Origin: Planctomycetota bacterium
GTDB lineage: Bacteria; Planctomycetota; UBA8742; UBA2392
Direction of reading: 5' to 3'
DNA: 64,000 bases
Assembly: GCA_020845475.1 (NCBI GenBank)
Contig: JADLFN010000072.1
Coordinates: 2,849 to 66,848, forward strand
Both the position numbers and the translations under genes were made by a program. Shown piece after piece: positions 5,858-55,175 of this stretch (its first letter is position 1; every line of letters starts with the position of its first letter). The notes below the pieces were generated by a model, which had not been told where the DNA came from, searched no databases, and saw nothing but the letters and a program-made list of their open reading frames with translations.

Positions 5858-6364
5858 TTACTGCGCCATGTCTTTGAGGACGTACACCTTGATCTTGTAC
5901 ATGCGAACTTCGACCATCAGTTCAATCAGCTGCGCGAAGTGACCTGCGGGACAACGCGCATCAACGCGAACCGCAATCAGGTTCTCGCTGCGGTTGTTTG
6001 CTTCACTCCAGCCTTCCAACTTGCGTGAAGGATCAACACGGCGCGCTTCCTGGCCCAGGATGGACTTCATTTCGTCGGGCGATTTGGGTGCCGGGTGCCC
6101 GTAGCAGAACCAGCCAAAATCCTTGGGCAGGTCTTCGTAGGCTCCCTGGTTAGCCGGCGCAATGTGAATGGTGAAAAGCTTCGGCGCCTGCTTGTCATCC
6201 TCGCTCGCCGAAATTGCGTCCGGCAGGCGCAGTGAAACGTTCTCCTGCTGCGTGATCTGCGTGCACACGATGAAAAAGATCAGCAACTGAAACACGCAGT
6301 CGATCATTGGCGTCATGTCAAAGCCAATAGGTGCGTTTTCAGTTTTCTTTCGATTCAGGGCCAT
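5858..6364 (-). CDS. exbD: ExbD/TolR family biopolymer transport protein (paralog 1)
   Basis: same TM motif, shorter periplasmic domain. Confidence 0.8.
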   Translation of the reverse strand: MALNRKKTENAPIGFDMTPMIDCVFQLLIFFIVCTQITQQENVSLRLPDAISASEDDKQAPKLFTIHIAPANQGAYEDLPKDFGWFCYGHPAPKSPDEMKSILGQEARRVDPSRKLEGWSEANNRSENLIAVRVDARCPAGHFAQLIELMVEVRMYKIKVYVLKDMAQ

Positions 6365-8654: not shown

Positions 8655-11600
8655 TTACTTGACCGTCAACTTGAGATCCTTGGCCCTGGCCAGCAGTGAA
8701 TCGGCGCAATCCTTGAGGCCCTTCTTGAACGTCTTTGTTTCGACATCGTCATAGCCGAGGCTGGCGAGGCTCTTGTTGCGGATGATGTCGAGCACCACCT
8801 GAACCTCGTCGCTCAGCTTCTTGAGCGAATCTACATCGACGAGATCCTTGATGCCTTCGCCGGCTTTGCCGTATTTCTTGAGCACGTCGATGGTCAAGTC
8901 GCCCCAGGCGCGCAGGCTCCGGCGCCACTCAGGGCGGAACGGGTGATCGTTCAATTGCGCAAAGCTCGTCCACTGGTCAAAGTGAATGCGACGGGCATGC
9001 CAGAGGTACTCCGCTTCGTTGGCCGGCATTTCCTGCATTTTGACTTTGCCGGACTTGGCGTCCTTGGCCTCGGGATCGAGCCAGATGTTGAACTGGTCAA
9101 CGAAGGGCGGGTAATCCACCTTGGGCGCCTTGAGCACATTGAGCTCAAGGTTGATTGCAATCAGAGTGTCAATGGTGTCGAGGTAGTAGAGTTCAATCTG
9201 CTCCTTGAAAGTCATCGTGAACGTTTTGCCCGAGCGCTGGTTCTTGCCCATCTCATTGGCGTTGCGCAGCAGCACAAAGCAATACGCGCGACGAATCAAA
9301 ACCGCCGCCTTCTTGAGGTTCTCAACGTCTTTGTTCTGTTTGTAGAGTTCAAAGTAAGAGCGTCCGAGCTGATACTTCAGCTCCAGCTCTTCACCGCTCT
9401 TGGTGTTGGCGTCCATCATGCCCTTGGCGGAGAGCCCGGCAGTCATGGACTGTTTGTTCACTGGAATGACGTTTTCGTTGACGAAGAAATTGTCCTTGCG
9501 CAGCAGGTCAAGGCAGCGCTGCAGATAGCCGGCCGCACGCTTGTAATCACGCACACGGAAGAAATTCTTGCCGACTACAAATTGAGAACGGGCCTCGGTG
9601 GCCTGCTGGTTTGCCTTTGTTTCCTGGTAGCGCTCGTAGTATGTCAGCACCTTGGTGAGCATCGGGCGCAGGCGCTCATCCAGGCCGGCGCTGGTTTCTT
9701 CCAGGAAGCCGCCAAATTCGTAAACAAACAGCGTGCCCGTGAAATAGCGCAGGTGCGAAGTATTCAGTGACACCTGGAGCGCCAGCGTTCCAAAGGGGCC
9801 TTCACCTTTGGCCTGCAACTTGTCCACGATTTCGGTGTTGCTGCCAGAGGCCACGAGCTTCTGGGCTTCCGTGCGAATAGCGTCGTAGCTCTTGTCCTTG
9901 ACCAGCGCGTCAAACTCGGCCTTCTGGGCCTCGCCCCAGCGCTTGGGGTACGACTCTGCGAACTCTTCCCACTTCTTCTTGAGTATCGGCAGCACCTCGG
10001 GCCCGACAGTCGCCGCCGGGAACTTCTTCGGATCGCCACCGAGCGTGCGTTCACTCATCCAGAACTTCCAGAAATAATCCGCCATGGCCTTGTCTTTGTC
10101 CAGCGTGGTCTTGGCGTCGGAGAATTTCTTGGCCGCGTCTTTGTCCTGAAGGAACATGGACTCGGTCTGGAACATGCCCAGCTTGAGCTGGTTGAACAGC
10201 GAGCGCAGATTGGTCGAAGCGCTGTTCAGCGCCTGAACCTTCGGGTCAAGCGTATCGAGATAAACGAGGTAGATCTGCGCGATGTAGTACGCGACTTTCT
10301 TCTTACCCTCGTCACTGCTGCCAAACGCGGCTTCATAAGCCTTGAGAATTGCCTCGCAGCCATCGCCGTCTTTTTCGTCGGCCAGGCAGCCGAAAGAGAG
10401 GTTCAACACGGCCTTCTGAACATCAACGTCTTCCTTGGGGAAGTGCGGGCCGAAAAGCTCCCAGTGCGATTTGAGAATGCGAAGTGCCGTCGGACGCCCG
10501 GCGTTGAGCACCGAAGTCATGTTCGGGTCGTTCTTGCGCGGGTTGCGCAGAAGATAAGCCAAACCGTAAGCGGCACGGCCCATGATTTGCAATTCTTCAT
10601 TCGGCTGTCGTGAACGCTCGGGTTGCGCGCGCCAGCGCTGGGCCATGCCGTCAGAAATCATCATGAACGCATCCACGAAATCGTGCTTCTTGACATCAAC
10701 AGAGTCTTTGACTTCTTCCCAGTTGCGAAGCACCACGAAAAGCATGTACTTCTTGAAGAAGTAAAGCGCCTTGTGCCAGATGGCGACATCGCCCTTGAGC
10801 GTTGCGTTGGCCATGGCTTCAAAGTGCGGTGTCTCAACGTTCTCCCACAGTTCTCTGGGAAGCGCGGCAAGATCTTCGCCGTGGCGACGTTTCATTTCTT
10901 CGAAGTACTGCCCGGACTCCTGCTCGAAATCTTCGCCCATGCGGCTGGGGTGGCGCGCCGTCTGGTCATCAAGCTGCGCCATGTAGGCGTTAGCCGCGTA
11001 ATAGAGCGCGAGGCGGAACTTCTTGTAAGTTGGAGGCAGTTTGGCAAAGCGCACCGCTGCGGGGCCGTATAACTTGCCGTTGTACTTTTCGCTGGCCTTG
11101 CCAAAGGCCTGATCGAGCTGGGCGTCCAAACCGCTGAAGAGCGCCTTCAGTTCGTCGGCCTCTTCTTTGATCTTGGCGAACTCGGCGTTCTTGGGATCGC
11201 CGAACTTCGAACTCACAAGCCACCCCGCAACTTTGGCGTAGGCTTTGGACATTTCCGCAGGGAAATCGTACACGGCCTTGGTGTCGACCATCAGGTCGCA
11301 AATGGGTGCGCCGCTCTTGTCCTTCATGTGGGCGGGAATCTCGATGCCCTTTTCCGGCGCGGTGTCGAAGTCCTTGCCGTACTTGCCGCGGAAATAGCCG
11401 GTGCGCAGGCAGGCCTCGCGGTAAATCATGGCCGCGTCCATGTAACGCTGCAGCAGGTCTGAGTAAATGAATCCCAGTTGACGGTAGCACTCGGGCGCAT
11501 AAGACTCAAACGCCTGGACGCTGTTGCACTGCGAGAGCAACACTTGATAAGCGCGCAGCACCTTGAAAATCGGCCCATAGCCGACTACGAGCGCATCCTT

Positions 11601-12734
11601 GAGCACGGCGCGACCGCACTGCAGGCGAGTTTCCGCATCCAGGCCTTCGGAGGCGCCGATGTCTGCAAGCACCGAAAGCGCCTGGCGTTTGAAATTGATG
11701 TCGTTCTCCTGCGCAAGCAGGAACAGATCGCTCAAGGCCACGGAGATGTTTCCACCGAGCTTGATCTGAGCGCCAATCTGGTAAAGCTTGAAGCGCTTGA
11801 ATTCGCTGGCGAGATCTTTGATACCACCGTAGCGCGAAGACGCCTTCTGGTACTGATCGACGCACATCTGAAGGTACTTTTTGTCGTAGCCAAGCTCGCT
11901 GGTCATGATCTCCGCGGCCTTTAACCAGCCGCGCAAAGCCTGGAAACCGATGTCGTAGCCCGGCGGGTAATCGCCCAGCTGGCTGGGAACTTCAAGGTAT
12001 TTCGCCACCGCACCTTCAAAGTTGCGCGACGCCCGCGCAACATCGCCGAGTAACAAGAGCGCGTCCACATACTCCACCGAGATCGGTAGCAGGAAAACTG
12101 CTTCGTTCACGGCGTCTTCACAGCGCTTGAAATGGTCGTTGCGATCCTTGCTGCCTTCAGCGAAGGTGAGGCCGTTGACGTAGTGTGCAACGCAGACGTT
12201 GTAAACACAGGTGCGATAGCGTGCGCCCTCCGCGGCAGCGAAAAACGCTTCGTCGCCCATTTGGCTGCGCGTGCTTTCAAGCAACTTCTGCTCGGCCTCA
12301 AGCACCTCCAGCGCCTTTCCAACGAGGCTGCGCGCACCTTCGGCGTCACTGCGGGCGCGGGCCTTTGCAATCTCCAGGCGCAGGACTGCGAGCTCGACCT
12401 TCTCAGCCGATTTTTCGGGGTCTCCGTATAGGCGCTCAGCCTTTTCGTAGCCTTCGTCGCGATCCTTTTCATTGCCGGACTTGAGGAAGTCGTCGTCGGC
12501 CTTGGCCTTGTACACGCGCGCCAGCGCAGACTTGGCCTTGGACTTCTCGGCGTCGCTGCCGCTATCCATTTGTTTGTTGAGAACGCGCTCGGCTTCTTCG
12601 TACATCTTCAGACGCACGCCGAGGTAGTAGCCGTACTCAGAAAGATCGCGAGCACCTGCCGCCGGTGCAAACGAGCATGCAGCCACCACAACGACCAAGC
12701 AGGACGCGACAAAGGAAAAAAGACGATTGGACAT
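8655..12734 (-). CDS. giant secreted TPR-like/alpha-helical repeat protein (~1360 aa)
   Basis: track ORF 8655..12995 trimmed to internal Met MSNRLFSFVASCLVVVVAACSFA (signal peptide); long helical-repeat composition. Confidence 0.6.
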   Translation of the reverse strand: MSNRLFSFVASCLVVVVAACSFAPAAGARDLSEYGYYLGVRLKMYEEAERVLNKQMDSGSDAEKSKAKSALARVYKAKADDDFLKSGNEKDRDEGYEKAERLYGDPEKSAEKVELAVLRLEIAKARARSDAEGARSLVGKALEVLEAEQKLLESTRSQMGDEAFFAAAEGARYRTCVYNVCVAHYVNGLTFAEGSKDRNDHFKRCEDAVNEAVFLLPISVEYVDALLLLGDVARASRNFEGAVAKYLEVPSQLGDYPPGYDIGFQALRGWLKAAEIMTSELGYDKKYLQMCVDQYQKASSRYGGIKDLASEFKRFKLYQIGAQIKLGGNISVALSDLFLLAQENDINFKRQALSVLADIGASEGLDAETRLQCGRAVLKDALVVGYGPIFKVLRAYQVLLSQCNSVQAFESYAPECYRQLGFIYSDLLQRYMDAAMIYREACLRTGYFRGKYGKDFDTAPEKGIEIPAHMKDKSGAPICDLMVDTKAVYDFPAEMSKAYAKVAGWLVSSKFGDPKNAEFAKIKEEADELKALFSGLDAQLDQAFGKASEKYNGKLYGPAAVRFAKLPPTYKKFRLALYYAANAYMAQLDDQTARHPSRMGEDFEQESGQYFEEMKRRHGEDLAALPRELWENVETPHFEAMANATLKGDVAIWHKALYFFKKYMLFVVLRNWEEVKDSVDVKKHDFVDAFMMISDGMAQRWRAQPERSRQPNEELQIMGRAAYGLAYLLRNPRKNDPNMTSVLNAGRPTALRILKSHWELFGPHFPKEDVDVQKAVLNLSFGCLADEKDGDGCEAILKAYEAAFGSSDEGKKKVAYYIAQIYLVYLDTLDPKVQALNSASTNLRSLFNQLKLGMFQTESMFLQDKDAAKKFSDAKTTLDKDKAMADYFWKFWMSERTLGGDPKKFPAATVGPEVLPILKKKWEEFAESYPKRWGEAQKAEFDALVKDKSYDAIRTEAQKLVASGSNTEIVDKLQAKGEGPFGTLALQVSLNTSHLRYFTGTLFVYEFGGFLEETSAGLDERLRPMLTKVLTYYERYQETKANQQATEARSQFVVGKNFFRVRDYKRAAGYLQRCLDLLRKDNFFVNENVIPVNKQSMTAGLSAKGMMDANTKSGEELELKYQLGRSYFELYKQNKDVENLKKAAVLIRRAYCFVLLRNANEMGKNQRSGKTFTMTFKEQIELYYLDTIDTLIAINLELNVLKAPKVDYPPFVDQFNIWLDPEAKDAKSGKVKMQEMPANEAEYLWHARRIHFDQWTSFAQLNDHPFRPEWRRSLRAWGDLTIDVLKKYGKAGEGIKDLVDVDSLKKLSDEVQVVLDIIRNKSLASLGYDDVETKTFKKGLKDCADSLLARAKDLKLTVK

Positions 12735-12879
12735 AGCAACGTCTCCGTGTTGCCTCGGAGTAAACGAGGTAGCTAACCTCGGTAGGGCCCAGTGAGCCGC
12801 GTTAGAGCGACTCGGTATAGCATCACTAACGCCTGAAACAACCCAAGGTTCGAATGAAGGACTCACCGCCCGCAACTGC

Positions 12880-12917
12880 AGCATCAAAACAAAGCCCCCG
12901 CAGACGCTGCGGGGGCT
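12880..12917 (-). terminator. Rho-independent terminator-like hairpin downstream of secretin gene
   Basis: perfect 10-11 bp GC-rich stem AGCCCCCGCAG/CTGCGGGGGCT followed on minus strand by UUGUUUUGAU. Confidence 0.6.
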
Positions 12918-12936
12918 TACCAACTTGCAGAAAAGT

Positions 12937-15639
12937 CTAGCGATCTTTCGGAGCGCTTGCACCGGATCCAAAGTTGTGGTCGATTTCCTCTTCAAGGTCG
13001 ATGATGCGGGCCGTGACGATGATGATCACGTCCTGACGAACCGTGCTCTTACCCTTACGCTTGAACAGTGAACCGATCAAAGGCAGGTCGGAGAGGATCG
13101 GAATGCCGCTTTCCACGTCAGTCTCGCTCATGGTGCGCATGCCGCCAATCACAAAGCTGCCGCCATCGGGCACGGTGACCGTGGTACGAATACGCTGCAA
13201 AGAGAGCTGCGGAGTCTGGATCGCAACCGGCGCGCCCACGCCGAGCGAAGTGGTGAACGTGGGAATCGGGCGCAGGAGGATGGCCAAAGTCGGGCGCAGC
13301 TCAAGCGTGATGTAACGGCGGTCAGCCGAAACCGTCGGACGCACGTCGAGCACGATACCGTCGCGGATGATGCTTACGACGGGGTCGGCCACGGCGATAC
13401 CCGTTGCAGTGCTGGTGTTGAAGTCCGAAATGTAAGCCACCTCGTTGAGCACGCTCACGTGCGCGCGCTGGGTGTTGTGAACTGTAACGCGAGGTGCCGT
13501 CAACAGCGTGGCACGTTCGCGCTTGCGCACGGCGCGGATGATGGCGTTGATCTCGGGGTTATCGACAAACGCGAGCTGGAAAGAAGCTCCGCCCGAGTTG
13601 GTCAAGCCCAAGCCGCCGCGCGTTCCGCCGAGCGCCTTGTCAAACAGGTTCTCAATGCGCGTGCGCTGGTCAATGCGCACGTTGCCCGAGGGCGGCATAT
13701 CCTGGAAGAACACACCGGCGTCGTTGCCCGTGCCACCGGGGCCGGCGGGATTGGCGTTGTTGCCGAACTGGATGTCGTCAAGCGCGGCCGGAACCGGAGG
13801 TGCGCCGGGCGGCGGAATCTGGGGGCTGCCACCGATGCCGCGGAAATCCAGGCCGATGTCCTCGAGGAAGTCGTCGCGAATCGTGATGAAGCGCGACTCC
13901 ACCGTCACGGTCAAGCCCTGCGAACGGCGCAGGTCATTGAGCAGTTGCGCCACCTTCTCAATGTTGTCCGGGTTGTTCAGGACAATCAGATCCTGCTGAC
14001 GCGTGGAAATACCGTGGCCTTCCTTCGACCACGAATCAGAATCAATGGACTGTTCAATCACGTCCTGCAGCTCGTCAATCGTCAGCGGCGTGGCGTCAGG
14101 AACATCTGTATCCGTACCGAAGCGATCGGTGTCCGTTTGATCGGTGCGCAGGCGCGGCTCATCGCCCTTGAACGTGCGCAGGTTGAGCAGCAAGTCCGCC
14201 ACGTTGAACACGCGGCGTGCCACGTTGCGGCCTTCATCCGAGCCCTTGGCGCCGATGATCACCGCGCCGTGCTGCACGCGCCATGAAAGATCGAGTGAGT
14301 CCGTGATCAGATTCAAGGCCTGGCGCAGTTTCACGCGGCCCACGTCCAGAGTAACCGTGCCATCGCCGGGAACGTCCTTGGCGCGCAACACGTTAATCTT
14401 GCCTTCCTGACGCAGGCGCTTGATTACGTCGTCAAGCGGCTGTTCTTCAAACGAAAGGTTCATGTCCACCGTGTCCAGCGCGCTGCGCACCGCGAGGTCT
14501 TCCTTCGAAAGCGGCGTGCGGCGGGAACGCTCGAGGCGATCCTGGCGATCGAGCGTGCGCTGCCAGTCTTCATAATCCGGCAGGGTTACATCGCCCGTGG
14601 GGAAAGAAGCCGCGTTCACCACCTGGGCCATGACCTGCTTCCAGTTGGAGTTGAAGGCTTCCCACGTGTCGCGGTCTTCTCGGCCGCGCTGCAGGTCGCG
14701 CGCGATGCCCTTGAGCTTGATGACATCCTGGTTGTAAGGATCTTCGCGCAGGATCTGGTTGAGCACGATGATCGTTTCGCCGTATTCACGGCGATCGAAA
14801 AATTCCTTGCTCTTGTTGTACAGGTTGCGGATCTGCTCGCGATAGCGGTTGAGCTCTTCCTGCATCTGCAGCTCGCGGATGCGGCGCTCCTGCTCCTGGG
14901 TGCTGACGTAATCCTTGACGCGGGCGTCTTCTCGCTTGCTGCGGGCTTCCTCGAGCATCAGGCGCGCTTCGCGCTCTTTGGCTTCAGTGTCAAGCATGTA
15001 GCCGGTCCAGCGGATGATGTCGAGAACCTTCTCGAGCTCATCCATGGCCTTGGTGTAATCACCGGCGCGAATCAGACGATCGGCGCGATCAAGACCTGCG
15101 TCGATTTCGTAAATCGCTTCGGCGCGCATCGCTTGATCTTCGTTGCTGCGGGCGCGCGAAATGTTCGCCGCCTCGCCGCGGCGCAGGCCAAGCAGGTTGG
15201 CGACATCATCGCGCACCTGGGCTGCGTTCTTGTTGTCTGGGTCCATCTCCAGCGCGTCGCTGGCGAGTTTGTAGGCCTTCTCGTAATTTGCGTTGCGGTA
15301 ATGCGTGTAGGCTTCATCGGCGTAATAATTCGCCAATGCCTTGATTTCGTCGGCGCTGGCCTTGTTGGAGGCGCCTGCGCCCGAACGGTTGCCGCGCTGA
15401 GCAACGGGCTCAGTCTTGCCTGCATCGGCTGCGTCCGGCTTGGCAGCCGATTCGCGATTGGTTTCGCGCGCAGGCTCACTCTTGCCGTTGGCGCGGAAGT
15501 CAGAAACGTAGTCGTCGCGGGTGGGTTTCACTTCAGCGTCAGCGGCCGGCTTCACCGAGGACGCGCAGGCGGCAATGAAACCAAAAGAAATGGCGGCGGC
15601 AACCAACGCAAAGCGCTTCTGAAGCCAAAGCTTCGTCAT
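12937..15639 (-). CDS. secretin (PilQ/GspD family) with long N-terminal TPR/coiled-coil extension
   Basis: C-terminal secretin signature ...TAPRVTVHNTQRAHVSV...VPDGGSFVIGGM...IPILSDLPLIGSLFKRKGKSTVRQDVIIIVTARII; start trimmed to MTKLWLQKRF signal sequence. Confidence 0.8.
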   Translation of the reverse strand: MTKLWLQKRFALVAAAISFGFIAACASSVKPAADAEVKPTRDDYVSDFRANGKSEPARETNRESAAKPDAADAGKTEPVAQRGNRSGAGASNKASADEIKALANYYADEAYTHYRNANYEKAYKLASDALEMDPDNKNAAQVRDDVANLLGLRRGEAANISRARSNEDQAMRAEAIYEIDAGLDRADRLIRAGDYTKAMDELEKVLDIIRWTGYMLDTEAKEREARLMLEEARSKREDARVKDYVSTQEQERRIRELQMQEELNRYREQIRNLYNKSKEFFDRREYGETIIVLNQILREDPYNQDVIKLKGIARDLQRGREDRDTWEAFNSNWKQVMAQVVNAASFPTGDVTLPDYEDWQRTLDRQDRLERSRRTPLSKEDLAVRSALDTVDMNLSFEEQPLDDVIKRLRQEGKINVLRAKDVPGDGTVTLDVGRVKLRQALNLITDSLDLSWRVQHGAVIIGAKGSDEGRNVARRVFNVADLLLNLRTFKGDEPRLRTDQTDTDRFGTDTDVPDATPLTIDELQDVIEQSIDSDSWSKEGHGISTRQQDLIVLNNPDNIEKVAQLLNDLRRSQGLTVTVESRFITIRDDFLEDIGLDFRGIGGSPQIPPPGAPPVPAALDDIQFGNNANPAGPGGTGNDAGVFFQDMPPSGNVRIDQRTRIENLFDKALGGTRGGLGLTNSGGASFQLAFVDNPEINAIIRAVRKRERATLLTAPRVTVHNTQRAHVSVLNEVAYISDFNTSTATGIAVADPVVSIIRDGIVLDVRPTVSADRRYITLELRPTLAILLRPIPTFTTSLGVGAPVAIQTPQLSLQRIRTTVTVPDGGSFVIGGMRTMSETDVESGIPILSDLPLIGSLFKRKGKSTVRQDVIIIVTARIIDLEEEIDHNFGSGASAPKDR

Positions 15640-15822
15640 AATTGCTCCACAGCGTCGGGGTAGATGGGGACGCGGGAAGAGGGGATCTGCTTGTCGGGGG
15701 CGATGTAAGTGTAACGGAGACAAGGGGTGTGTCAACAGCCAAAGTTTCAGGCCCATAAATCGAAGCTGGGGTTGATGCCTGGACGGCACCAACCCCAGAG
15801 TCTCGCGAGACTTCAGAAGGTG

Positions 15823-17760
15823 CTACTTGTCAACGTAGTAAACGCCCCAGATGTCCATTTTGCCTTCGCCCATGTCGAGCGTTCGCTTTTCGATACCTCC
15901 GTAAATCAGGCCGGTCTCCATGCTGATGGCGCGCAGGCCGAGCTTGTCGGCGTCAGCAGGCACGCCACCGTCGTCAAAGAACTGGATCATGTCCTTGCCC
16001 AGTCCGCCAATGGCAGCCTCGGCATAGCCCACGGTGTCTCCCTTTTTCACGTCCTGGTATGCAACGATCCGGTACCACTGGTTGCCGACTTGCGTCCAGC
16101 GCGTGATCTCAAAGCGAGCGCTGGCGCCACCCTTGCCGACGCAGATCACGCGAACGCCGAGCGGATTGGCCATGCCGCTGGGGTCAACGTTGGCCGCAGT
16201 CGCGGGATCTTTGGTATCGCGCGGCAGCACGAACCTCAATGCGCTGCCTTTCTGTCCAAACTCCATATCAGAGCCCGTGAACTGGTTGAAAATCCATCCC
16301 GTGGCGAAATCCAGAACGTCGCCGGAGGCTTCCAGCGCCTTGTACCACTCAGCGTTGGCTTTGCCTTCTGCGTCAACGACGGCGATCTCATAGCCGCGTC
16401 CCTTCAGAGCTGAGGCCTTGCCGCTCGCGCCGACTTCCTCGCCCTGGCCGACGCTGACAATCACTTCGACCGCACGCCACACGCCACCAATGGGATGGAA
16501 CTTGCGCAACTTGATGCGCGCAAGGTCGGATTTGCCCAGCCAGGACATCTGAATGCGGTTGAAGACAACAACGGGGCGGCCTGCCATTACAGCCGCGTCG
16601 CTGGTATGGTAATCGGCCGCGAAAGTATCGTCGCTCTTGATGCCTTCCTTGAGCTTGCTCTTGGTCGTGGCGCGCACTGCGTAAACGTAAGTGTATTCAG
16701 CCTTGAAGCTAACGTCGGCGAACGTGAGTTCCGTCAGGGGCGTATCGTTGAGACGCTCCCACTCACTGGGCCTGGGCGGCGCAACAGGTTTGACGCGGCC
16801 CTTGGGATCCTTTTCAAAGTCGGGTTCCGACTTGCCTCCATTGCCGGGCAGTGCCTGCCATGCTATGAAATCCTTCCTCCATGCGTCTTCCTTCTTGCGA
16901 TGGGCCGGAAGGTCAACCGTGTTGTAGCGTAGCTCACGGTCCTTTATGTCTGCTTTACTCTTGCGCATGACCCAATAACCCAGGTCAGCCGGAGCATCCT
17001 TCAGGCTCGGTGCCGTCCAGCTCACGTTGATCACGAAGGACTTGGCGTCTGCGGCGGCTTTTACGTCGACCGGAGGCGCGAGGTCGGCGTCAGGGTTCAC
17101 TGTCGGACGAGCGCCGTATTCCACTCGATCCAGGAACTTGTCTTTGTTTTTGTCCTTGTCTTCGAAGTCCGTGTTGCCCGTGCCATTCTCATACTCGACG
17201 CGCGAGAGCTTGCCGTCTTCGTTCGTATCATACTTGTCGAAATCGATGTCCTGTGCGCTCGGATTTGTGTCGTACTCCGTCTTCGTCAGATAGCCGTCCT
17301 TGTTGGTGTCCAGCGTACGGAACTTGATTCCGTCAAGCGACTTCTGCGTGTTGGCATACTCGGCTGGGCTCAGGCGGCCGTCTCCGTCTGCATCACTTCC
17401 TTTAAAGTCGGGTGCTCCGACAGGCGCCTCCAGAAACACACGGAACTGAGTAGGCAGGTCAAGAATCTTGTGCTCATCGGCGATCCTGGACGGAATCTTG
17501 CCGCCCTTCACCACGCCAAAAGCCTGATCTGCGCCGTTGAGACCCTCCGCGGAGAACGCAGGTACGGCTGCGGAAGGCTTGGGGTCGTTCAACTTGCTGT
17601 TAACTTGTGACACAGCGTCGTCAATCTTGCGCTTGGGCGCTTCTGTGTCGCCCAGCACGACTGCGAGCAACACGAACACCACCATCAACAGGCCGCCGCC
17701 GATCCAGGCCGCCATCGGGCCGAACTTGATGAGCGCGCTTTCGTTGGGTGCTTCCGCCAT
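15823..17760 (-). CDS. bitopic membrane protein with four EF-hand-type Ca-binding loops
   Basis: N-terminal TM helix; DADGDGRLSPAEY, DTNKDGYLTKTEY, DTNEDGKLSRVEY, DKDKNKDKFLDRVEY loops. Confidence 0.6.
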   Translation of the reverse strand: MAEAPNESALIKFGPMAAWIGGGLLMVVFVLLAVVLGDTEAPKRKIDDAVSQVNSKLNDPKPSAAVPAFSAEGLNGADQAFGVVKGGKIPSRIADEHKILDLPTQFRVFLEAPVGAPDFKGSDADGDGRLSPAEYANTQKSLDGIKFRTLDTNKDGYLTKTEYDTNPSAQDIDFDKYDTNEDGKLSRVEYENGTGNTDFEDKDKNKDKFLDRVEYGARPTVNPDADLAPPVDVKAAADAKSFVINVSWTAPSLKDAPADLGYWVMRKSKADIKDRELRYNTVDLPAHRKKEDAWRKDFIAWQALPGNGGKSEPDFEKDPKGRVKPVAPPRPSEWERLNDTPLTELTFADVSFKAEYTYVYAVRATTKSKLKEGIKSDDTFAADYHTSDAAVMAGRPVVVFNRIQMSWLGKSDLARIKLRKFHPIGGVWRAVEVIVSVGQGEEVGASGKASALKGRGYEIAVVDAEGKANAEWYKALEASGDVLDFATGWIFNQFTGSDMEFGQKGSALRFVLPRDTKDPATAANVDPSGMANPLGVRVICVGKGGASARFEITRWTQVGNQWYRIVAYQDVKKGDTVGYAEAAIGGLGKDMIQFFDDGGVPADADKLGLRAISMETGLIYGGIEKRTLDMGEGKMDIWGVYYVDK

Positions 17761-18888: not shown

Positions 18889-20940
18889 TTACTTCTGTTC
18901 TGCCGCGGGCGGCATCTCGATGGGCGAAAGTGAAACGGTGACCTGCACCCGGAACGGAGAAACGTAGCGCTTCAACGGCGTGGGCTTGGTTGCACCGAAA
19001 TTGTTACCGAGCAACGTGCGCACACCGACAGCCTTGTCCGCTTCCATGGAAACGTTGTCATAGGCCGTCTTGACCGTAAGCCCTGACCACTTGATCGCGC
19101 CGATTTCCGCTTCGCTCAAATCCTTCAACTGGCCGCGTACTTTCAACTCAGCGAGCAACGCAGCCTTTAACTTCGCATGCAGGAGACCGCCGTTGCCCTC
19201 GCTGCCGCCGACGAGATCGAACTCCGCTTTGTCGTAGGGCTCGCGCAGGCGCTGTTCCGTGGGTGCCGCGCGCTCCGTGCCCATGACCAGTCCCGACAGG
19301 GATGCCTCATAGCGGAATTCGCGCTTTACGGTGTGATAGCCGGATTGTTCTGCGGCGTCCGCCCCTGCCTCGCCCAATTGCACCCAGTTGCTCTCATTGG
19401 TGCTGGGCTTGATCATGAGCGCGATTTCTCCACCGCTCTCGGCCAGTTTGTTTACACGGAAATACTGGTGTTCCGGTGTAGCCTTGGCGAATTCCACAAG
19501 CGCTTCATCTGTGACACGCGCGATCAGTCCAGGCAAAATTGCCGCCGGCAACTCCAGGTGGCGCGTGACCTTGACGGCCTCTCCACCTTCGGCGGCGGGA
19601 GGAATCGTGTGCTCGGTGGAACCTACACGCCCCACCGTGACGTTGCGCAGACTCAAAGCCAGGAGCGCATTGGCGTCATTGGCCTGGGCCGCGGTGACCT
19701 TGGCTTTGGCCGCCGTGACGTCACCGGCTGATTTCGTCGCGGCTGCGGTTTTATCGTCCACTCCGCCACCGGCGCTGATACCAAGCAGCATGGCAACAAG
19801 ACCGCCGGCGAAAATCATGCCGCCCGCGGCGATCATGGGAACCTTGAGCCGCGCTTTGGCGCGGGCTTCAAGCCGCTCACGCGGCATCAGGTTAATGGTG
19901 TTCAGACCGGCGACACCGAGACCTTCAAGCGCAAGGCCGATGGCGACGGTGAGGCTCTGGATGTTGTCCTGAACCTCGGCGGGATCAACGCTGCGCGAAA
20001 GCTGCATGCGTGCGGGCGTTTCAACCTTGTGAACCTTGTATTGAAGCTGCTGCTCAAAGAACTTCTGGATGTTGATGAGCTTGGAGCCGTTGCCCATCAT
20101 CACCAGCTGGTTGATATTGGCGGCTTCATTCTGGCTCTTGTAGAAGCCCACCGCGCGGTAGATTTCGCCCACCATTTCCTTCAACGGCGGCTTCATGGCT
20201 TCGAAGACTGCCGCCGCGTCCTTGCTCTTGGCCGCGCGGCGCTTGAGTTTTTCGGCGTCATCGTCAGAAAGCTTGAAGCGCGCCTTGAGGGCTTTGGTGA
20301 TGTCGTTGCCGGCCACGGGCACCACGCGCACGTATGTCTTCTGGCCGTCGATGACAACGAGGTCGGTGTTCTCGGCTCCGATATCGATGGCGACGCAGCA
20401 GTTGGAAATGCCCTCGTCCAATTCAAACTTGACGTAGTTGTAGATACCCAGCGGTGCGACCTGAATGCCGGTGATTTCGAGGTTGGCGCTTTCGCACGCA
20501 TCGACGATTTCTTCAACGGCCTGGCGCTTGGCTGCGTAAAGGTTGACTTTGCGCTCATCGACTGCGCCGGGATCGTCGATCGTCTGGTAATCCCACACCG
20601 CCTGTTCCAGCGGAATCGGCACCTGTGACTTGGCCTCGTTCTCGATCGTCTCGCGAACCTTTTCGTCAGAAACCGGCGGCAGGCTGATAATGCGGCCGAG
20701 GGTGTTCTGACCCTTGATCGAGACGTAAACAACGTCGCCGCTCTTGACGCCATTCGCCACTCGGAAGGCACTGAGCGCCGCAGCCGTGGCGTCATTGACG
20801 CTCGTGCCGCTGCCCAACCCGTAATCGGAGAGGCTGATGATGGAAATCGCGTCAATGGTGACGGAACCGCGGTCTTCACTCAGTCGGACCGCTTTGATGC
20901 TCGATGTGCCGAGCTCAATACCCCAAGCTGTTTTCGCCAT
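18889..20940 (-). CDS. pilM: type IV pilus-like assembly protein, PilM (actin-fold ATPase) fused to PilN-like bitopic domain with extended periplasmic C-terminus
   Basis: N-term WGIELGTSSIKAV and actin-fold PilM similarity; residue ~355 INLMPRERLEARAKARL + TM helix resembles PilN N-terminus; start trimmed to MAKTAWG with GAGGAA RBS. Confidence 0.75.
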   Translation of the reverse strand: MAKTAWGIELGTSSIKAVRLSEDRGSVTIDAISIISLSDYGLGSGTSVNDATAAALSAFRVANGVKSGDVVYVSIKGQNTLGRIISLPPVSDEKVRETIENEAKSQVPIPLEQAVWDYQTIDDPGAVDERKVNLYAAKRQAVEEIVDACESANLEITGIQVAPLGIYNYVKFELDEGISNCCVAIDIGAENTDLVVIDGQKTYVRVVPVAGNDITKALKARFKLSDDDAEKLKRRAAKSKDAAAVFEAMKPPLKEMVGEIYRAVGFYKSQNEAANINQLVMMGNGSKLINIQKFFEQQLQYKVHKVETPARMQLSRSVDPAEVQDNIQSLTVAIGLALEGLGVAGLNTINLMPRERLEARAKARLKVPMIAAGGMIFAGGLVAMLLGISAGGGVDDKTAAATKSAGDVTAAKAKVTAAQANDANALLALSLRNVTVGRVGSTEHTIPPAAEGGEAVKVTRHLELPAAILPGLIARVTDEALVEFAKATPEHQYFRVNKLAESGGEIALMIKPSTNESNWVQLGEAGADAAEQSGYHTVKREFRYEASLSGLVMGTERAAPTEQRLREPYDKAEFDLVGGSEGNGGLLHAKLKAALLAELKVRGQLKDLSEAEIGAIKWSGLTVKTAYDNVSMEADKAVGVRTLLGNNFGATKPTPLKRYVSPFRVQVTVSLSPIEMPPAAEQK

Positions 20941-21093
20941 GGATTCCTCAGGTACTGCGCCGCGCATCCGGCGTTTTGGGCCAGAATCAGCTATCGCTTC
21001 AACGGCACGAAGCTGCCAAAAATGAGTGGCAGCGCGTCGCGCGAAACAGGAACCTTGGGGGTAGCCATAGCATGGCCAAGGCTTGCGCCGAAA

Positions 21094-49634: not shown

Positions 49635-49710
49635 TGGTGGGCGTAGAGGGATTCGAACCCCCAACATCCTGCGTGTAAGGCAGGCGCTCTAACCGTTGAG
49701 CTATACGCCC
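49635..49710 (-). tRNA. tRNA-Val (anticodon TAC), CCA encoded
   Basis: revcomp GGGCGTATAGCTCAACGGTTAGAGCGCCTGCCTTACACGCAGGATGTTGGGGGTTCGAATCCCTCTACGCCCACCA; cloverleaf with GTTCGAATC T-loop; anticodon loop CTTACAC. Confidence 0.85.
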
Positions 49711-49765: not shown

Positions 49766-51112
49766 CTACTTTCGGTGCAATTCCAACAAGAGCAGTTCGG
49801 CCGCCTTTAGCAGGCGTGGGTCCGTGCTCGTGGTGCAAAGCGGCAGAAGGTTCTCGCGCGTGGCCTTTTTGTATTGCGCGATGTGCTCGGCGCCCTTGCC
49901 TGACTTAGGCAGCGAGCGCAGGTTATGCACTCGATCGCAGATTTTTACGGCGCGCAGCCAGCTTGGTGCTCCCCTCAGGCCTTCGTAGTAGCGGCGCAGG
50001 CCCAACTCCTTGGGCGTGCCATCTCGCTTGTACATTTTCGTCAGCGTCACGGCCGCCTCGGCCACCACGGGCCCGAACCTGTCCTCGATGTCCTTGGGCG
50101 TGGTGGGCAGGTGGTCTTCGAGAACATCGTGCAGAAGCGCCGATATCACTTCTTCGCGTCCGCGCATTTTGCATTCCTCAACCGCAATCAGCGCTACCTC
50201 CAACGGGTGCGTGGCGTAGGGCGTGCCTTCGTCGCGCGTCTGGCCGGCGTGCGCTCGATACATGACCTCAAGCGCGCGCGTGACGTCACGCTTGATCGCG
50301 GCATCAATCTGCCGCAGCAGACGTTCTTCAAGCGCAAGGCAGCCTTCAGGGCGGGAGATTTTCAGTTCCGGCTCGTGTTCTTCGGCCATGCGCGCGGCCA
50401 CTTCTTTCTGCGTAAGCCTGCCCGTTGTGGGCGAGCCGCCTTTCTTGTGGTGGCGCTCCTCCATCACGCGGCGCAGGTCTTCGAGGCTGATCTCGCGCTG
50501 CACCATCAGCACCATCAGGTGGTAAACGAGGTCGCACATCTCCCCGACCAGCGCGGCCCTGTCTTCACCCTTGGCGGCGATAATCGTTTCCGTCGCTTCC
50601 TCGCCGAGTTTCTTGAGGATCTTGTCGATGCCTGCCTTGAAAAGGTATGTGCTGTAGCTGCCCTCGGGCATTTCCTGCTTGCGCGTCTGTAGCAGCGTGC
50701 GCACCTGCTCCATCAATTCGCCCAGCCGCGCGCCGAAGCCAACTTGCTGCTCGGGTTTGGCAGCCTCCGCCAACACAGCTTCGCTGCGGTGAATCGTCGT
50801 GAAGAAGCAGTCGTTCTCGCCGGTATGGCAGGCGGGACCGGCCGGAATCACGCGTGCGACAAGCGCGTCGCCATCGCAGTCAAGGCGCATTTCGGCTACG
50901 CGCATGGTGTTGCCGGAAGTTTCGCCCTTGCGCCAGAGTTCCTTGCGCGAGCGAGACCAGAACACGATCTGGCCTGTGCGCAGCGTTTCGGCGAAGGACT
51001 CCGCGTTCATGTAGGCAAGCGTGAGCACTTCGCCCGTAGCCGCGTTCTGCAGCACGCACGGCAAAAGCCCGTTCTTGTCCCACTTTATGCCCTTGGCGGG
51101 ATCTTCGTTCAT
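49766..51112 (-). CDS. hisIE: tri-domain fusion: phosphoribosyl-AMP cyclohydrolase (HisI) / phosphoribosyl-ATP pyrophosphatase (HisE) / SpoT-RelA-type HD hydrolase domain
   Basis: HisI: [14 protein letters not shown]...ETSGNTM...CDGDAL; HisE: [12 protein letters not shown]; C-terminal HD: [20 protein letters not shown]...[10 protein letters not shown]...[12 protein letters not shown]; ATGA overlap with hisF stop. Confidence 0.75.
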
Positions 51113-51879
51113 GACACCAGCTCCTCGGCGGGCCGCATGTTGATGCCGTGTGTGCGCATGAATTCCTTGGCCTGGCGCACCGTGTATTTGCCGAAGTGGA
51201 ACATGCCCGCGGCAAGCACCGCCGAAGCGCCCGCCTCCAGACCTTCGCACAAATGCTCAAGCGTGCCCGCGCCGCCTGACGCAATGACGGGCAGCTTCAC
51301 GATCTGCGAAGCTCGACGCGTCAAGTCCAGGTCGAAGCCGTTCCCGGTGCCGTCGCGGTCCATGCTCGTAAGCAGGATTTCGCCCGCGCCGAGCGCGGCC
51401 GCCGACCGGATCCAATCCAATGCGTTACGGCCGGTATCGGTGCGGCCGCCGTCAACGAACGTGTTCCATGATGCGCCGACTTTGCGCGCATCCACGGCCA
51501 GCACTACGGCCTGAACACCAAAACGATTTGCGCACTCGGAGATCAGTTCCGGCCGTCGCACGGCCGCGCTGTTGATGGCGACTTTGTCGGCGCCGGCGCG
51601 AAGCAGCGCCTCGAAGTCCGCCACAGTGCGCACGCCGCCACCGATGGTGAACGGAATCGAAAGCTCCTGCGCACAGCGGCGCGCAAGTTCAATGGCGGTG
51701 TTGCGTTTTTCGTGGCCGGCGGTGATGTCGAGGAACACCAACTCGTCGGCTTCCTCGGCGTCGTAGCGCAGCGCGCACTCCACGGGATCGCCCGCGTCGC
51801 GCAAGCCGACGAAATTGACGCCCTTGACGACGCGGCCGTCTTTGACGTCAAGGCAAACAATCAATCGCTTGGCCAACAT
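51109..51879 (-). CDS. hisF: imidazole glycerol phosphate synthase cyclase subunit
   Basis: [20 protein letters not shown]... canonical HisF; start trimmed. Confidence 0.9.
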
Positions 51880-51895: not shown

Positions 51896-52669
51896 CTACT
51901 TACGTTCTTTGAGCCCCGCCGCCGCAGCTTCCAACGCCTGCGCGTAGGTAAACGTGCCTGAGGCCAGTGCCTTGCCGACCAGCGCCCCGGTAACACCTTT
52001 GATTGCCGCACACGCCCTGATGTCGGCGAGCTGATTGACGCCCCCGGCGATAATCACTTCGACGCCCAGTTCACCCATGCGCTTGGCGGGATCGAGTACG
52101 AGTCCGCCGCCGGCGTCGCTTTGCACGTCCTGGTAAATGAACGCTTTCACGCCGGCGGTTTTCATGTGGCGCGCGAGTTCTTCCACGCGCATCTCTTTGA
52201 CCTTGACCCACTCCTGGCTTACACACATGCCGTTCTTTCCATCGATGGCGGCAACCACCGCGTCCGCGTTCAGTTTCACCGCGTTACGCACGAGTTCGGG
52301 GTTGCGCATAGCTGCGTTGCCCAGTGCCACGCGCTTGATGCCCAATGAAAGCACTTTCATGATGCTATTTAGATCGCGCAATCCGCCGCCGAACATAAGG
52401 GGCGTCTTCACACCCTTGGCGATTTCCGCAATCACCTCAAGGTTCTTGTTCGCCCCGGCGAGCACACTGCCGGAGTGTTCGCTTTCGCCCACCAAAAACG
52501 GCCCGTCGAGATTGACGAGGTGAATCAAAGGCGCCCCGGCCTTCTCGTACTCCTTGGCCAGCCTGACGGCATCGACGCGATTGGCGCGTGTGCCCATGCC
52601 GAGGTTCTCGTAGCGCAGTCCCATGCCGCCGCGCAATTCGATCGCTGGGTAAACGTTGAATGTGCTCAT
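51896..52669 (-). CDS. hisA: HisA-family (beta/alpha)8 isomerase, divergent second copy
   Basis: [15 protein letters not shown]... and HisA-like phosphate-binding motifs; tandem to canonical hisA. Confidence 0.7.
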
Positions 52670-52671
52670 GC

Positions 52672-53394
52672 CTATTTCCTGTTGAATGCCAGTGCTTCTC
52701 TTAGTGTAAATCGCCGCTCGTATAAAGCTTTACCTACAATCAAGCCTTCCGCGCCCGATTCGGCCGCGGCCTTGATGTGCTCCAGGCTGCCCACGCCGCC
52801 GGAAAGAATGACTTTTGCGCCCATCTCGCACAGGCGTTTGCCACCCTCCACATCGGGGCCGACCATCATGCCGTCACGCGCGATGTCCGTGTAAATGAAG
52901 CGCTCAACCCCAATATCCATCATCTGTTTCACCAGGAAATCCGCGCGCACGCCTGTGGTTTCGACCCAGCCCTCGATGGCCACTTTGCCATTGCGCGCGT
53001 CAATACCCACGGCGATGCGATCCGCCCCGTACTTCTTTACGGCTTCTGCCACCACTTCAGGCTTGCGCAGCGCAACCGTGCCCAGCACCACGCGCGCCGC
53101 GCCGGCCGCCATTGCGAACAGTATCCCGGTGGCGTCGCGCATGCCGCCACCGAACTGCACCAGCATGTGGGCCTTTTCAAGGATCTTGCCCATCTTGGTG
53201 TAGTTGCGCTGGGCATCGCCAAAGGCGCCGTCAAGATTGACCACGTGAATCCAGAGTGCACCCTGTTCGCGAAAGCCCTGCGCCACGGCCACGGGATCAT
53301 CGGCATAGACGGTGACCTGCGAGGCTTCGCCCTGCTGCAACCGGACGACCTTGCCCTTGCGCAGATCAATGGCCGGATAAACGGTGAATGTCAT
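52672..53394 (-). CDS. hisA: 1-(5-phosphoribosyl)-5-[(5-phosphoribosylamino)methylideneamino]imidazole-4-carboxamide isomerase
   Basis: [19 protein letters not shown]... canonical HisA; ATGA overlap with hisH stop. Confidence 0.85.
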
Positions 53395-53999
53395 GCTTGC
53401 CCCAGGAAATTGCGCAACAGACGCTGCCCCGCGCGCTGGCTCTTTTCAGGATGCGCCTGCACCCCCCACACGTTTTCGCGCCGCATCACGCTGCAGAACG
53501 TCTCGCCGTACTCCGTCGTCGCCAGCACATCGGCCGCAACGCGCGGCACGCAAACATAGCTGTGCACGAAGTACAGGTAGCGGCCGTTCACACCCTCAAG
53601 CAGCGGGTCTGGCCGCGTCGCCTTGATCGAATTGAATCCCATGTGCGGCACGCTTTGCCCTTGCGCATCCATGGCGCGAACGCGACCTGGCACCAGGCCG
53701 AGCCCCTGGGTCAGTTCAAACTCGTCGCCCTCGTCCAGCATCAGTTGCATGCCCAGGCACACGCCGAGCACCGGCTTGCCCTTGGCCGAAAAGCGCGTAA
53801 TCGCTTCACACAAGCCGCGCGCTTGAAGCGATTTCATGCCGGCGGGAAAGCTGCCCACTCCGGGCAGGACAAGACGCGAGGCCTGGGCAATGTCAGCCGC
53901 CTTTGTCGCCACCGACACCTCGCCGCCTGCGCGCTCAAGCGCGCGTGCGATCGAGGCCAGGTTGCAGATGCCGGAATCAATGATGGTGACGGCAGGCAT
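53391..53999 (-). CDS. hisH: imidazole glycerol phosphate synthase glutamine amidotransferase subunit
   Basis: C-terminal 202 aa of track ORF 53391..55202: [13 protein letters not shown]...GVCLGMQ...HSY.. class-I GATase triad; upstream part of that ORF is antisense to DUF444 gene. Confidence 0.85.
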
Positions 54000-54065
54000 G
54001 AGGTTGCGAAGTGTAGCGAGAATCAACCTGCTGCCAACGCACCAGCGCGCGGCTACAATAACTCC

Positions 54066-55175
54066 ATGGCCACGCAGCACAAAATTGAGGGTGACCACTC
54101 GCGCTTCCGCCAGATTGTGCGCGGCAAGATCCGCAAGGAGCTGCGCAAGTTCATCACCAAAGGCGAACTGGTGGCGCGCAAGGGCAAGGGCACGGTCAGC
54201 ATTCCCTTGCCGCAGATTGACATTCCGCGCTTTCGCTTTGGGCAGAAGCAGACCGGCGGCGTGGGCCAGGGAGAGGGTGAAATCGGGCAATCGCTCGGCT
54301 CCGACGGCGAGCCCTCCACGGGCGAGGCGGGTGACAAGCCCGGCGACCACGTTCTGGAAGTGGATGTTTCGCTCAAGGAACTCGCGGAGATTCTGGGCGA
54401 GGAACTGGAACTCCCGAACATCCAGCCCAAGGGCAAACACACGGTGCTGACCGAGCGCTCGCGCTACGTGGGCATTCGCAACGTTGGCCCGGAATCGCTG
54501 CGCCATTTCAAGCGCACGTTCAAGCATGCGCTGCTGCGCCAGATTGCCAGCGGCATCTACGATCCGCTCAACCCGGTGATCATTCCCGAGCGCCAGGACA
54601 AACGCTTCCGCAGCTGGGAAGTGCGCCCCGTTCCGGAAAACAGCGCCGTCATCGTTTACATGATGGACGTGTCCGGCAGCATGGGCGAGGAACAAAAGGA
54701 GATTGTGCGCATCGAGAGCTTCTGGATCGATACGTGGCTGCGATCGCAGTACAAAAACATCCAGAGCGTTTACATCGTGCACGACGCCGAGGCTAAAGAG
54801 GTGGACGAGCACACGTTCTTTCATTTGCGTGAGAGCGGCGGCACAAAGATCAGCAGCGCATACAGGTTGTGTGTGCAGTTGATCAAAGAACGGTTCAACC
54901 CCGCGGAGTGGAACATTTATCCGTTCCATTTCTCTGACGGCGATAACTGGGGCGCGGATGACACAGAGGAATGCTTCCGCGTGCTTGATGGCGAATTGCT
55001 GCCGGCCAGCAACATGTTCTGCTATGGCCAGGTGCGCAGCGCCTACGGCAGCGGAAAGTTCAAGGACGACCTCGATGGCCGCTACGCGGCCGATGATCGC
55101 GTGATCACTAGCGACATCGCCAGCGTTGAGGGCATCCTGACCTCGATTCGCGATTTCCTTGGCAAAGGCCGATAG
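54066..55175 (+). CDS. DUF444 (YeaH/YhbH) family protein
   Basis: [31 protein letters not shown]-terminus and vWA-like region typical of YeaH. Confidence 0.7.

Follow-up and report, generated by a model that had tools for sequence, protein, structure and literature searches.

The window analysed here is a stretch of 64,000 nucleotides (nt) from a Planctomycetota bacterium (contig JADLFN010000072.1 of GenBank assembly GCA_020845475.1), in which positions are counted from the first letter. Its minus strand carries a histidine-biosynthesis (his) gene cluster, hisH-hisA-hisA′-hisF-hisIE::HD (Table 1), of which the third gene, hisA′, encodes a diverged HisA paralogue and the last encodes the bifunctional enzyme HisIE extended at its C terminus by a hydrolase (HD) domain of the RelA/SpoT type. 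The hisIE::HD gene is an open reading frame (ORF) encoding 448 amino acids (aa), with the ATG at 51112, the stop codon at 49766–49768 and no internal stop codon, and its ATG overlaps the TGA stop codon of hisF as ATGA, the usual sign of translational coupling. A first-pass annotation made from the sequence alone had placed hisIE at the end of this block, and the translations, family scores and tblastn map bear this out. The same annotation gave the protein a C-terminal extension of ~190 aa, whereas the extension is ~226 aa long in total, made up of a tether of ~28 aa and the HD domain of ~198 aa.

In the 448-aa protein, Pfam recognises PRA-CH at residues 32–104 (E = 1e-32), PRA-PH at residues 136–221 (E = 1e-21) and HD_4 at residues 280–405 (53.4 bits; gathering cut-off 27.2). 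The first 223 residues score 246 bits against the NCBIfam HisIE equivalog NF002747 (cut-off 187), and the HisE part scores 97 bits against TIGR03188 (cut-off 42.7). In an alignment of 32 fusion proteins, the HisI metal-ligand motifs LDCDGD and GPACHTG..C (D78-C79-D80-D82, C95-H96 and C102) and the HisE acidic residues E171, E172, E175, E191 and D194 are invariant. The RelA/SpoT family TIGR00691 is matched at model positions 1–122 only, corresponding to its hydrolase end (65 bits; cut-off 499), and the protein gives no Pfam match to RelA_SpoT or TGS.

The hydrolase domain of RelA/SpoT homologues (RSH) is defined by six motifs: an HD1 Arg that stacks on the base, an HD2 His, an HD3 His-Asp pair, an HD4 Glu-Asp pair, an HD5 Asp-Arg/Lys pair and an HD6 Asn (PMC9293644). 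Their counterparts in the fusion are R293, H302, H328-D329, E332-D333, D393-R394 and N397, and all are invariant among the 32 fusion proteins, as is Y299, while the equivalent of RelSeq T151 (S/T400) is Ser or Thr throughout. HD1 and HD2 are spaced by 9 residues, the same as RelSeq R44 and H53, without the insertion described for bacterial small alarmone hydrolases (SAHs). The domain includes a conserved N-terminal helix, K-x-S-R-P-x-G-C-x-x-L-E-x-R-L-L. The HD motifs quoted in the first-pass annotation are present at residues 288–307, 325–334 and 390–401, and the catalytic residues of the domain are not degenerate.

The structural model agrees with this assignment. In an AlphaFold2 prediction based on the family alignment, the predicted local distance difference test (pLDDT) value is 90–98 for residues 255–448 and below 50 for residues 223–251. 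A Foldseek search of the PDB with the HD part gives template-modelling (TM) scores of 0.80–0.83 to MESH1 and PaSAH, among them 0.83 to human MESH1 with NADPH (5vxa) and 0.82 to the Pseudomonas SAH PaSAH (6yvc), and also matches Rel/SpoT hydrolase domains with bound (p)ppGpp; the N-terminal half of the fusion matches HisIE structures. By sequence, the best matches of the C-terminal 200 aa among solved structures are the hydrolase halves of Rel/SpoT (E = 5e-15 to 3e-10), followed by a Pseudomonas SAH (E = 4e-10) and MESH1 (E = 3e-9). By Pfam, NCBIfam, motifs and fold, a SpoT/RelA-type HD domain is covalently fused to a bona fide HisIE, as the first-pass annotation had proposed, and the C-terminal domain is a complete RelA/SpoT-type hydrolase domain with an intact active site.

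Purifying selection constrains the HD domain to the same degree as the HisIE part. Mean pairwise identity is 0.72 for the HD core, 0.75 for HisI and 0.75 for HisE, as against 0.25, with 44% gaps, for the tether (residues 223–249), which varies in length from 12 to 40 aa among homologues. In eight pairs, dN/dS (the ratio of nonsynonymous to synonymous substitution rates; Nei-Gojobori method) is 0.04–0.23 for HD and 0.03–0.22 for HisIE, with dS near saturation in some pairs.

Far from being an artefact, the fusion characterises a clade of uncultured Planctomycetota. Among 5.8 billion clustered proteins, 39 clusters (90% identity; P0001–P0039) with lengths of 405–452 aa are 55–98% identical to the window protein over 94–100% of the query, and PRA-CH, PRA-PH and HD_4 are present in 39/39. 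The clusters derive from NCBI, JGI, ENA and Logan assemblies; where they are named, the label is just "HisIE", and the NCBI names give a planctomycete source. Hits beyond the 39 clusters are ordinary HisIE proteins of ~250 aa that cover half of the query. In a GTDB search with one genome per species, close relatives of the HD part (56–81% identity) occur in 22 species, all of them uncultured Planctomycetota metagenome-assembled genomes (MAGs), below which identity falls to 37% (Sumerlaeota) and lower. The fusion is found in 20 of the 22 species, and in the other two (loci L019 and L020) the HD gene stands alone. The recurrence of the three-domain protein in 39 independent clusters and 20 GTDB species genomes excludes a frameshift or chimeric assembly, and the hidden frameshift or stop codon that the first-pass annotation had considered is absent.

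A profile search with the HD domain against 1.84 billion representatives at 50% identity returned 28,652 relatives, only 8 of them at E ≤ 1e-30. In this search the fusion clade comprises one full-length representative and two short sequences, one clearly a fragment, and its scores of 185–354 bits compare with 149 bits for the best outside match, a wide gap that leaves the clade isolated in profile space. The long proteins in the match list of this search contain no further His fusion. A scan of metagenome contigs with the HD alignment was dominated by the generic motif LLHDVLED, and the matches listed are ordinary Rel and SAH genes with at most 43% identity.

In the tblastn map of the related loci, the fusion gene is always the final his gene. 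The full order hisZ-hisG-hisD-hisC-hisB-hisH-hisA-hisA′-hisF-hisIE::HD is found at 17 loci (16 GTDB-species loci and L047) and also in three contigs reached through HisA′ (L048–L050), while the short block hisH-hisA-hisA′-hisF-hisIE::HD is found in the window, the near-identical L045, L017 and L018. One locus, L003, has the full order without hisA′. The operon hisB encodes imidazoleglycerol-phosphate dehydratase (IGPD) only (196–201 aa), and the 10-gene operon covers all histidine steps except histidinol-phosphate phosphatase. Two elements go beyond ordinary his operons, namely HisA′ and the HD domain.

HisA′ does not qualify as a canonical HisA. Specifically, it fails the HisA equivalog TIGR00007 (132.8 bits against a cut-off of 229), which the product of the adjoining canonical hisA passes (244.6 bits), and in all 32 family members the catalytic Asp of strand 1 is replaced by Glu (AIEL for AIDL) at the position altered in the PDB entries "HisA D7N" (S. 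enterica) and "PriA D11N". Furthermore, HisA′ carries a conserved 12-aa insert after NLDG, which in the model forms part of the β2-α2 loop, on the catalytic side of the barrel, and has YQDxxxDA in place of YTDIxRDG, with both phosphate-binding glycine motifs retained. The fold is still that of HisA and PriA: a (βα)8 barrel is predicted with confidence (pLDDT 88; predicted TM score (pTM) 0.88), and its closest structures are PriA and HisA (TM 0.84). The HisA′ family comprises 37 clusters of 233–259 aa (nearly all 255–259 aa) with 50–100% identity, from the same Planctomycetes assemblies as the fusion; beyond the family, identity drops sharply to 35% (ordinary HisA). The NCBI label for HisA′ is "hypothetical protein".

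In every HisA′ context examined, an HD domain is encoded in the same operon, and the most constant genomic partner of the HD domain is HisA′, not HisIE. In L019 (2856–4276) and L020 (7169–8594), both from MAGs named 'uncultured Planctomycetaceae', hisA′ is followed directly by a stand-alone gene for a 209-aa HD protein, in the order ABC-ATPase, cytochrome c, hisA′, HD, DNA glycosylase and methyltransferase; no canonical his gene was found at either locus. Genes for the ABC-ATPase and cytochrome c also precede the full operon in L047, and those for the methyltransferase and DNA glycosylase also lie downstream of the fusion in the window, L045 and L049. The stand-alone HD protein starts ~10 residues before the helix RKIxRPxGCxELEQRLL, so the conserved helix belongs to the HD domain. 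In neighbour-joining trees without bootstrap, the fusion carrier L047 is the deepest branch of the HD tree, and L019 and L020 nest among fusion carriers in the HisA′ tree. These placements suggest that the stand-alone HD gene is most simply a secondary fission that retained exactly the two non-canonical parts of the operon.

The explanation that we favour, with evenly balanced confidence, is that the HD domain is an active alarmone-type 3′-(pyro)phosphohydrolase made in step with the his operon, with HisA′ as its working partner, and that it serves as a pathway-linked nucleotide sink. To our knowledge, the characterised proteins that share these motifs and this fold all hydrolyse nucleotides of the (p)ppGpp/(p)ppApp class, at least in vitro, and it is on this ground that we infer an alarmone-type activity. 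In this mechanism, a single polypeptide holds the HisI-HisE enzyme and the RelA/SpoT-type hydrolase domain together on a flexible leash of ~28 residues. Judged from its motifs and model, the HD domain would remove the 3′-pyrophosphate (or a 2′/3′-phosphate) of a (p)ppGpp- or (p)ppApp-like purine nucleotide, probably in a Mn2+-dependent manner. As the last, translationally coupled cistron, the gene would supply hydrolase in fixed proportion to the histidine enzymes, so that induction of the pathway would bring a nucleotide-alarmone sink along. Such a sink could give negative feedback on the starvation signal, or could relieve nucleotide inhibition of the pathway. The flexible tether argues for co-expression and co-localisation rather than rigid allostery. 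HisA′, with its remodelled active site, probably acts together with the hydrolase, maybe as an isomerase or as a ligand sensor for a ProFAR-like compound.

Several observations weigh against this explanation. Nearly all bacteria are considered to have RSH enzymes and (p)ppGpp, and the Planctomycetes-Verrucomicrobia-Chlamydiae (PVC) group is the textbook exception. In the survey of Atkinson et al. (2011, PMC3153485), Planctomycetes, Verrucomicrobia and Chlamydiae are without RSH and Rel is present in all other major bacterial groups, and a 2021 review repeats the absence of RSH from the PVC superphylum (PMC8118318). Some subfamilies of toxic small alarmone synthetases (toxSAS) occur in Planctomycetes according to a 2021 preprint, so RSH domains are not wholly missing from the phylum. 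When seven long RSH proteins were compared by phmmer with every ORF in 701 kb of sequence (the window and the retrieved loci, 22 of them from the clade), only HD domains and no synthetase domain were matched; because these 701 kb sample little of each genome, the existence of a native (p)ppGpp pool is not proven. The best-matching long RSH (P0207), used as a protein query, retrieved a family of HD_4-RelA_SpoT-TPR proteins from other phyla and none from planctomycetes.

The protein itself supplies further objections. The equivalent of RelSeq K45, the residue that follows HD1 and lies outside the six motifs, is Asp, Glu or His in the fusion; in RelSeq this Lys hydrogen-bonds the substrate, and the position is usually Lys or Arg (PMC9293644). 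The non-basic residue may point to a different nucleotide substrate. MESH1, which has the same motifs, acts physiologically on NADPH (PMC8118318, PMC9293644). In addition, L003 retains the fusion without hisA′ in the operon, with an unrelated 137-aa ORF (5899–6312) in its place. The whole-protein pTM is 0.50, and the model has no confident packing or defined interface between HisIE and HD. The first-pass annotation had proposed that the fusion would tie stringent-response signalling physically to the first, ATP-consuming reactions of histidine synthesis. With this pTM and a poorly conserved tether that is predicted to be disordered, there is no sign of a rigid or allosteric coupling and the proposal is unsupported as stated; the link to the stringent response is further weakened by a host phylum reported to be RSH-free and by a domain that has HisA′ as its most constant partner. 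The annotation also invoked, as classical, a regulation of the his operon by ppGpp, but this is enterobacterial knowledge, which is not simply transferable to this lineage.

The main rival explanation, which we consider possible and yet somewhat doubtful, is that the HD domain was recruited together with HisA′ for non-alarmone chemistry in a lineage without (p)ppGpp, dephosphorylating a compound of the histidine pathway or a related phosphoribosyl compound, or acting on NADPH like MESH1. The reported absence of RSH from the PVC superphylum (PMC3153485, PMC8118318), the acidic residue or His at the K45 position and the MESH1 active site, which serves as a phosphomonoesterase on a non-alarmone substrate (PMC8118318, PMC9293644), all fit such a recruitment, as does the fusion itself, since joining to a pathway enzyme is a classic signal of a functional link. 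In its most specific version, the HD domain supplies the histidinol-phosphate phosphatase step, the only one that the operon lacks, in an operon that has exactly two extra parts, HisA′ and HD. The domain lies outside the known histidinol-phosphate phosphatase folds (HAD HisB-N, PHP HisK/HisJ and IMPase HisN) and matches HD_4 and HD only; were it to catalyse this reaction, a new, fourth type of such enzyme would be added to the three known. A PHP-domain gene of L047 (15994–16806, minus strand), 5 kb from the operon, was considered for the step and set aside, because by score its product is not of the HisK type; it resembles the 3′,5′-nucleoside-bisphosphate phosphatase/RNase AM type, with scores below the cut-offs of those models, which counts in favour of this explanation. 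However, histidinol-phosphate phosphatase is commonly encoded outside his operons, so the gap in the operon is weak evidence. Moreover, the contacts to a purine nucleotide (HD1 Arg, HD6 Asn, S/T400 and the PY Tyr) are all kept, which is unexpected for an enzyme of so small a substrate as histidinol phosphate, and HD and HisA′ persist in L019 and L020 without his genes at the locus, which fits a role independent of pathway enzymes encoded alongside. The same pair might be a previously unrecognised two-part module, born in the his operon of one Planctomycetota lineage, perhaps without (p)ppGpp, by re-use of the hydrolase fold. We regard this as rather unlikely; in one variant HisA′ might bind or isomerise a phosphorylated ribosyl intermediate on which the HD domain acts, possibly even as a new kind of histidinol-phosphate phosphatase, and in another the pair might form a pathway-flux sensor and a nucleotide hydrolase that replace the missing stringent-response machinery.

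It is improbable that the HD domain protects against foreign toxins that synthesise (p)ppApp or alarmones (Tas1-like, toxSAS), with constitutive expression through a housekeeping operon and an incidental link to histidine. SAHs do counteract alarmone synthetases that are toxic, and they break down (p)ppApp (PMC7229694, PMC9293644); some toxSAS subfamilies are reported in Planctomycetes, and such a role would explain an alarmone hydrolase in a lineage without a housekeeping RSH. However, no toxin or synthetase gene adjoins the HD gene in the ~25 loci examined, and immunity genes are normally toxin-adjacent and patchy, whereas the fusion is vertically conserved across the clade with low dN/dS; the co-inheritance of HisA′ would also be left unexplained. 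An origin of the fusion in faulty assembly or annotation, or an HD domain that is a decaying, functionless remnant, can be practically dismissed in view of 39 clusters from four independent sources, 20 species genomes, invariant motifs, a dN/dS of ~0.1 and a confident fold.

The nearest counterparts of the HD domain include the SAHs (PaSAH and RelH) and MESH1, which share with the fusion a lone RSH hydrolase domain of ~190 aa without a synthetase, the six HD motifs and an all-helical fold. Those are free proteins, whereas the domain described here forms the C-terminal portion of an enzyme of biosynthesis. Jimmy et al. (2020) distinguished 11 SAH subfamilies. Compared with bacterial SAHs, the fusion HD domain has the loop length of long RSH proteins (9 residues), lacks the SAH insertion, has a non-basic K45 equivalent and carries the extra N-terminal helix RPxGCxxLExRLL. 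The N-terminal hydrolase of long RSH proteins (Rel and SpoT) gives the best sequence matches among solved structures and has the same motifs and loop spacing. However, the fusion is not a long RSH: SYNTH, TGS, helical and ACT/RRM domains are all missing from it, and regulation within the molecule or through the ribosome, as known for RSH enzymes, cannot apply. Bifunctional HisIE is matched in its his-operon setting, its retained metal motifs and an N-terminal portion of 225 aa that passes the equivalog cut-off, and differs in lacking the extra domain of ~198 aa.

The five catalogued his fusions (hisA/F, hisIE, hisHF, hisNB and hisIE-D) all join pathway enzymes (PMC1963479). Fungal HIS4 (hisIE-hisD) is the closest in layout, with HisIE extended at its C terminus through a variable linker to another catalytic domain (PMC1963479); in the present fusion, unlike the catalogued ones, the partner is a signalling-nucleotide hydrolase domain with no known pathway step. 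A dual-domain small alarmone synthetase of Mycobacterium smegmatis likewise places a lone RSH catalytic domain on a housekeeping enzyme, although a synthetase is there joined to a nucleic-acid enzyme, whereas here a hydrolase is joined to an amino-acid biosynthetic enzyme (PMC7591505). The first-pass annotation knew of no described example, and the literature searched likewise contains no description of a histidine/alarmone-hydrolase fusion. The catalytic domain is thus of a known kind, and the novelty lies in its conserved architecture, in its gene partnership and in its occurrence in a phylum that was believed to lack the domain family; as far as we found, it is apparently the first case in which a his gene is fused to something other than an enzyme of the pathway. 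A conserved, apparently active hydrolase is informative either way, as the lineage either handles (p)ppGpp/(p)ppApp-like nucleotides or has re-purposed the fold like animal MESH1. The automated "HisIE" annotation hides the HD domain, and a single clonable gene with separable domains offers an experimental handle.

Table 1. Features of the his cluster and its surroundings in the 64,000-nt window.
Feature	Position	Strand	Basis and remarks
hisIE::HD	49766..51112	-	448 codons + stop; final cistron of the his cluster; single ORF, PRA-CH + PRA-PH + HD_4
HisI (phosphoribosyl-AMP (PR-AMP) cyclohydrolase) domain, aa 5-112	50777..51100	-	PF01502, E 1e-32; mean pairwise identity 0.75
HisE (phosphoribosyl-ATP (PR-ATP) pyrophosphohydrolase) domain, aa 133-222	50447..50716	-	PF01503, E 1e-21; mean pairwise identity 0.75
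Flexible tether, aa 223-250	50363..50446	-	identity 0.25, 44% gaps, variable length, AlphaFold pLDDT <50
RSH-type hydrolase (HD_4, SAH-like) domain, aa 251-448	49769..50362	-	HD_4, motifs HD1-HD6, fold, dN/dS
hisF	51109..51879	-	TIGR00735, 329.5 bits (cut-off 294.6)
hisA′ (diverged HisA paralogue)	51896..52669	-	TIGR00007, 132.8 bits (cut-off 229)
hisA (canonical)	52672..53394	-	TIGR00007, 244.6 bits (cut-off 228.95)
hisH, first gene of the cluster here	53391..53999	-	translation; tblastn map; GATase Pfam match on the 99%-identical L045 gene
Sigma-70-like promoter match just upstream of hisH	54010..54037	-	weak: 9/12 consensus positions, consensus match only
tRNA-Val(TAC), at the end of the his cluster	49635..49710	-	ARAGORN; Rfam tRNA, 76 bits

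Other features of the window surround the cluster. The hisZ-G-D-C-B genes that stand upstream of hisH in most relatives are not within the 64 kb, and hisH is preceded by a divergently transcribed DUF444 (YeaH-like) gene at 54063–55175 (plus strand). An Rfam scan for a riboswitch or leader gave a tRNA only. This tRNA-Val(TAC) gene lies 55 nt downstream of hisIE::HD on the same strand, a simple scan found no terminator-like site between them, and the tRNA may be co-transcribed with the fusion gene.

Several candidates for related fusions were set aside. Two ENA 'HisIE' proteins of ~300 aa (P0040 and P0041), considered as fusion remnants, contain exact internal duplications of the HisI-HisE junction and are probably assembly artefacts. 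The one match of the metagenome scan that neighbours a hisF gene (L053) is a normal 697-aa Rel gene 3 kb away, which was judged to be there by chance. The long HD relatives, considered as His fusions, are instead tandem HD_4 proteins, HD_4-TPMT proteins or proteins with HD_4 behind N-terminal regions without a domain match. Examples are P0123, a tandem double HD_4; P0164, in which HD_4 is fused to a TPMT-type methyltransferase; and P0208 and P0227, in which HD_4 follows an N-terminal region of ~200 aa that has no Pfam match and appears hydrophobic by eye.

Elsewhere in the window, a 1446-aa ORF at 8655–12995 (minus strand) has no Pfam match and adjoins a secretin gene (12937–15792), with genes for an EF-hand protein (15823–17760) and a PilM-like protein (18889–20967) nearby; it may encode an uncharacterised pilus or secretion component.

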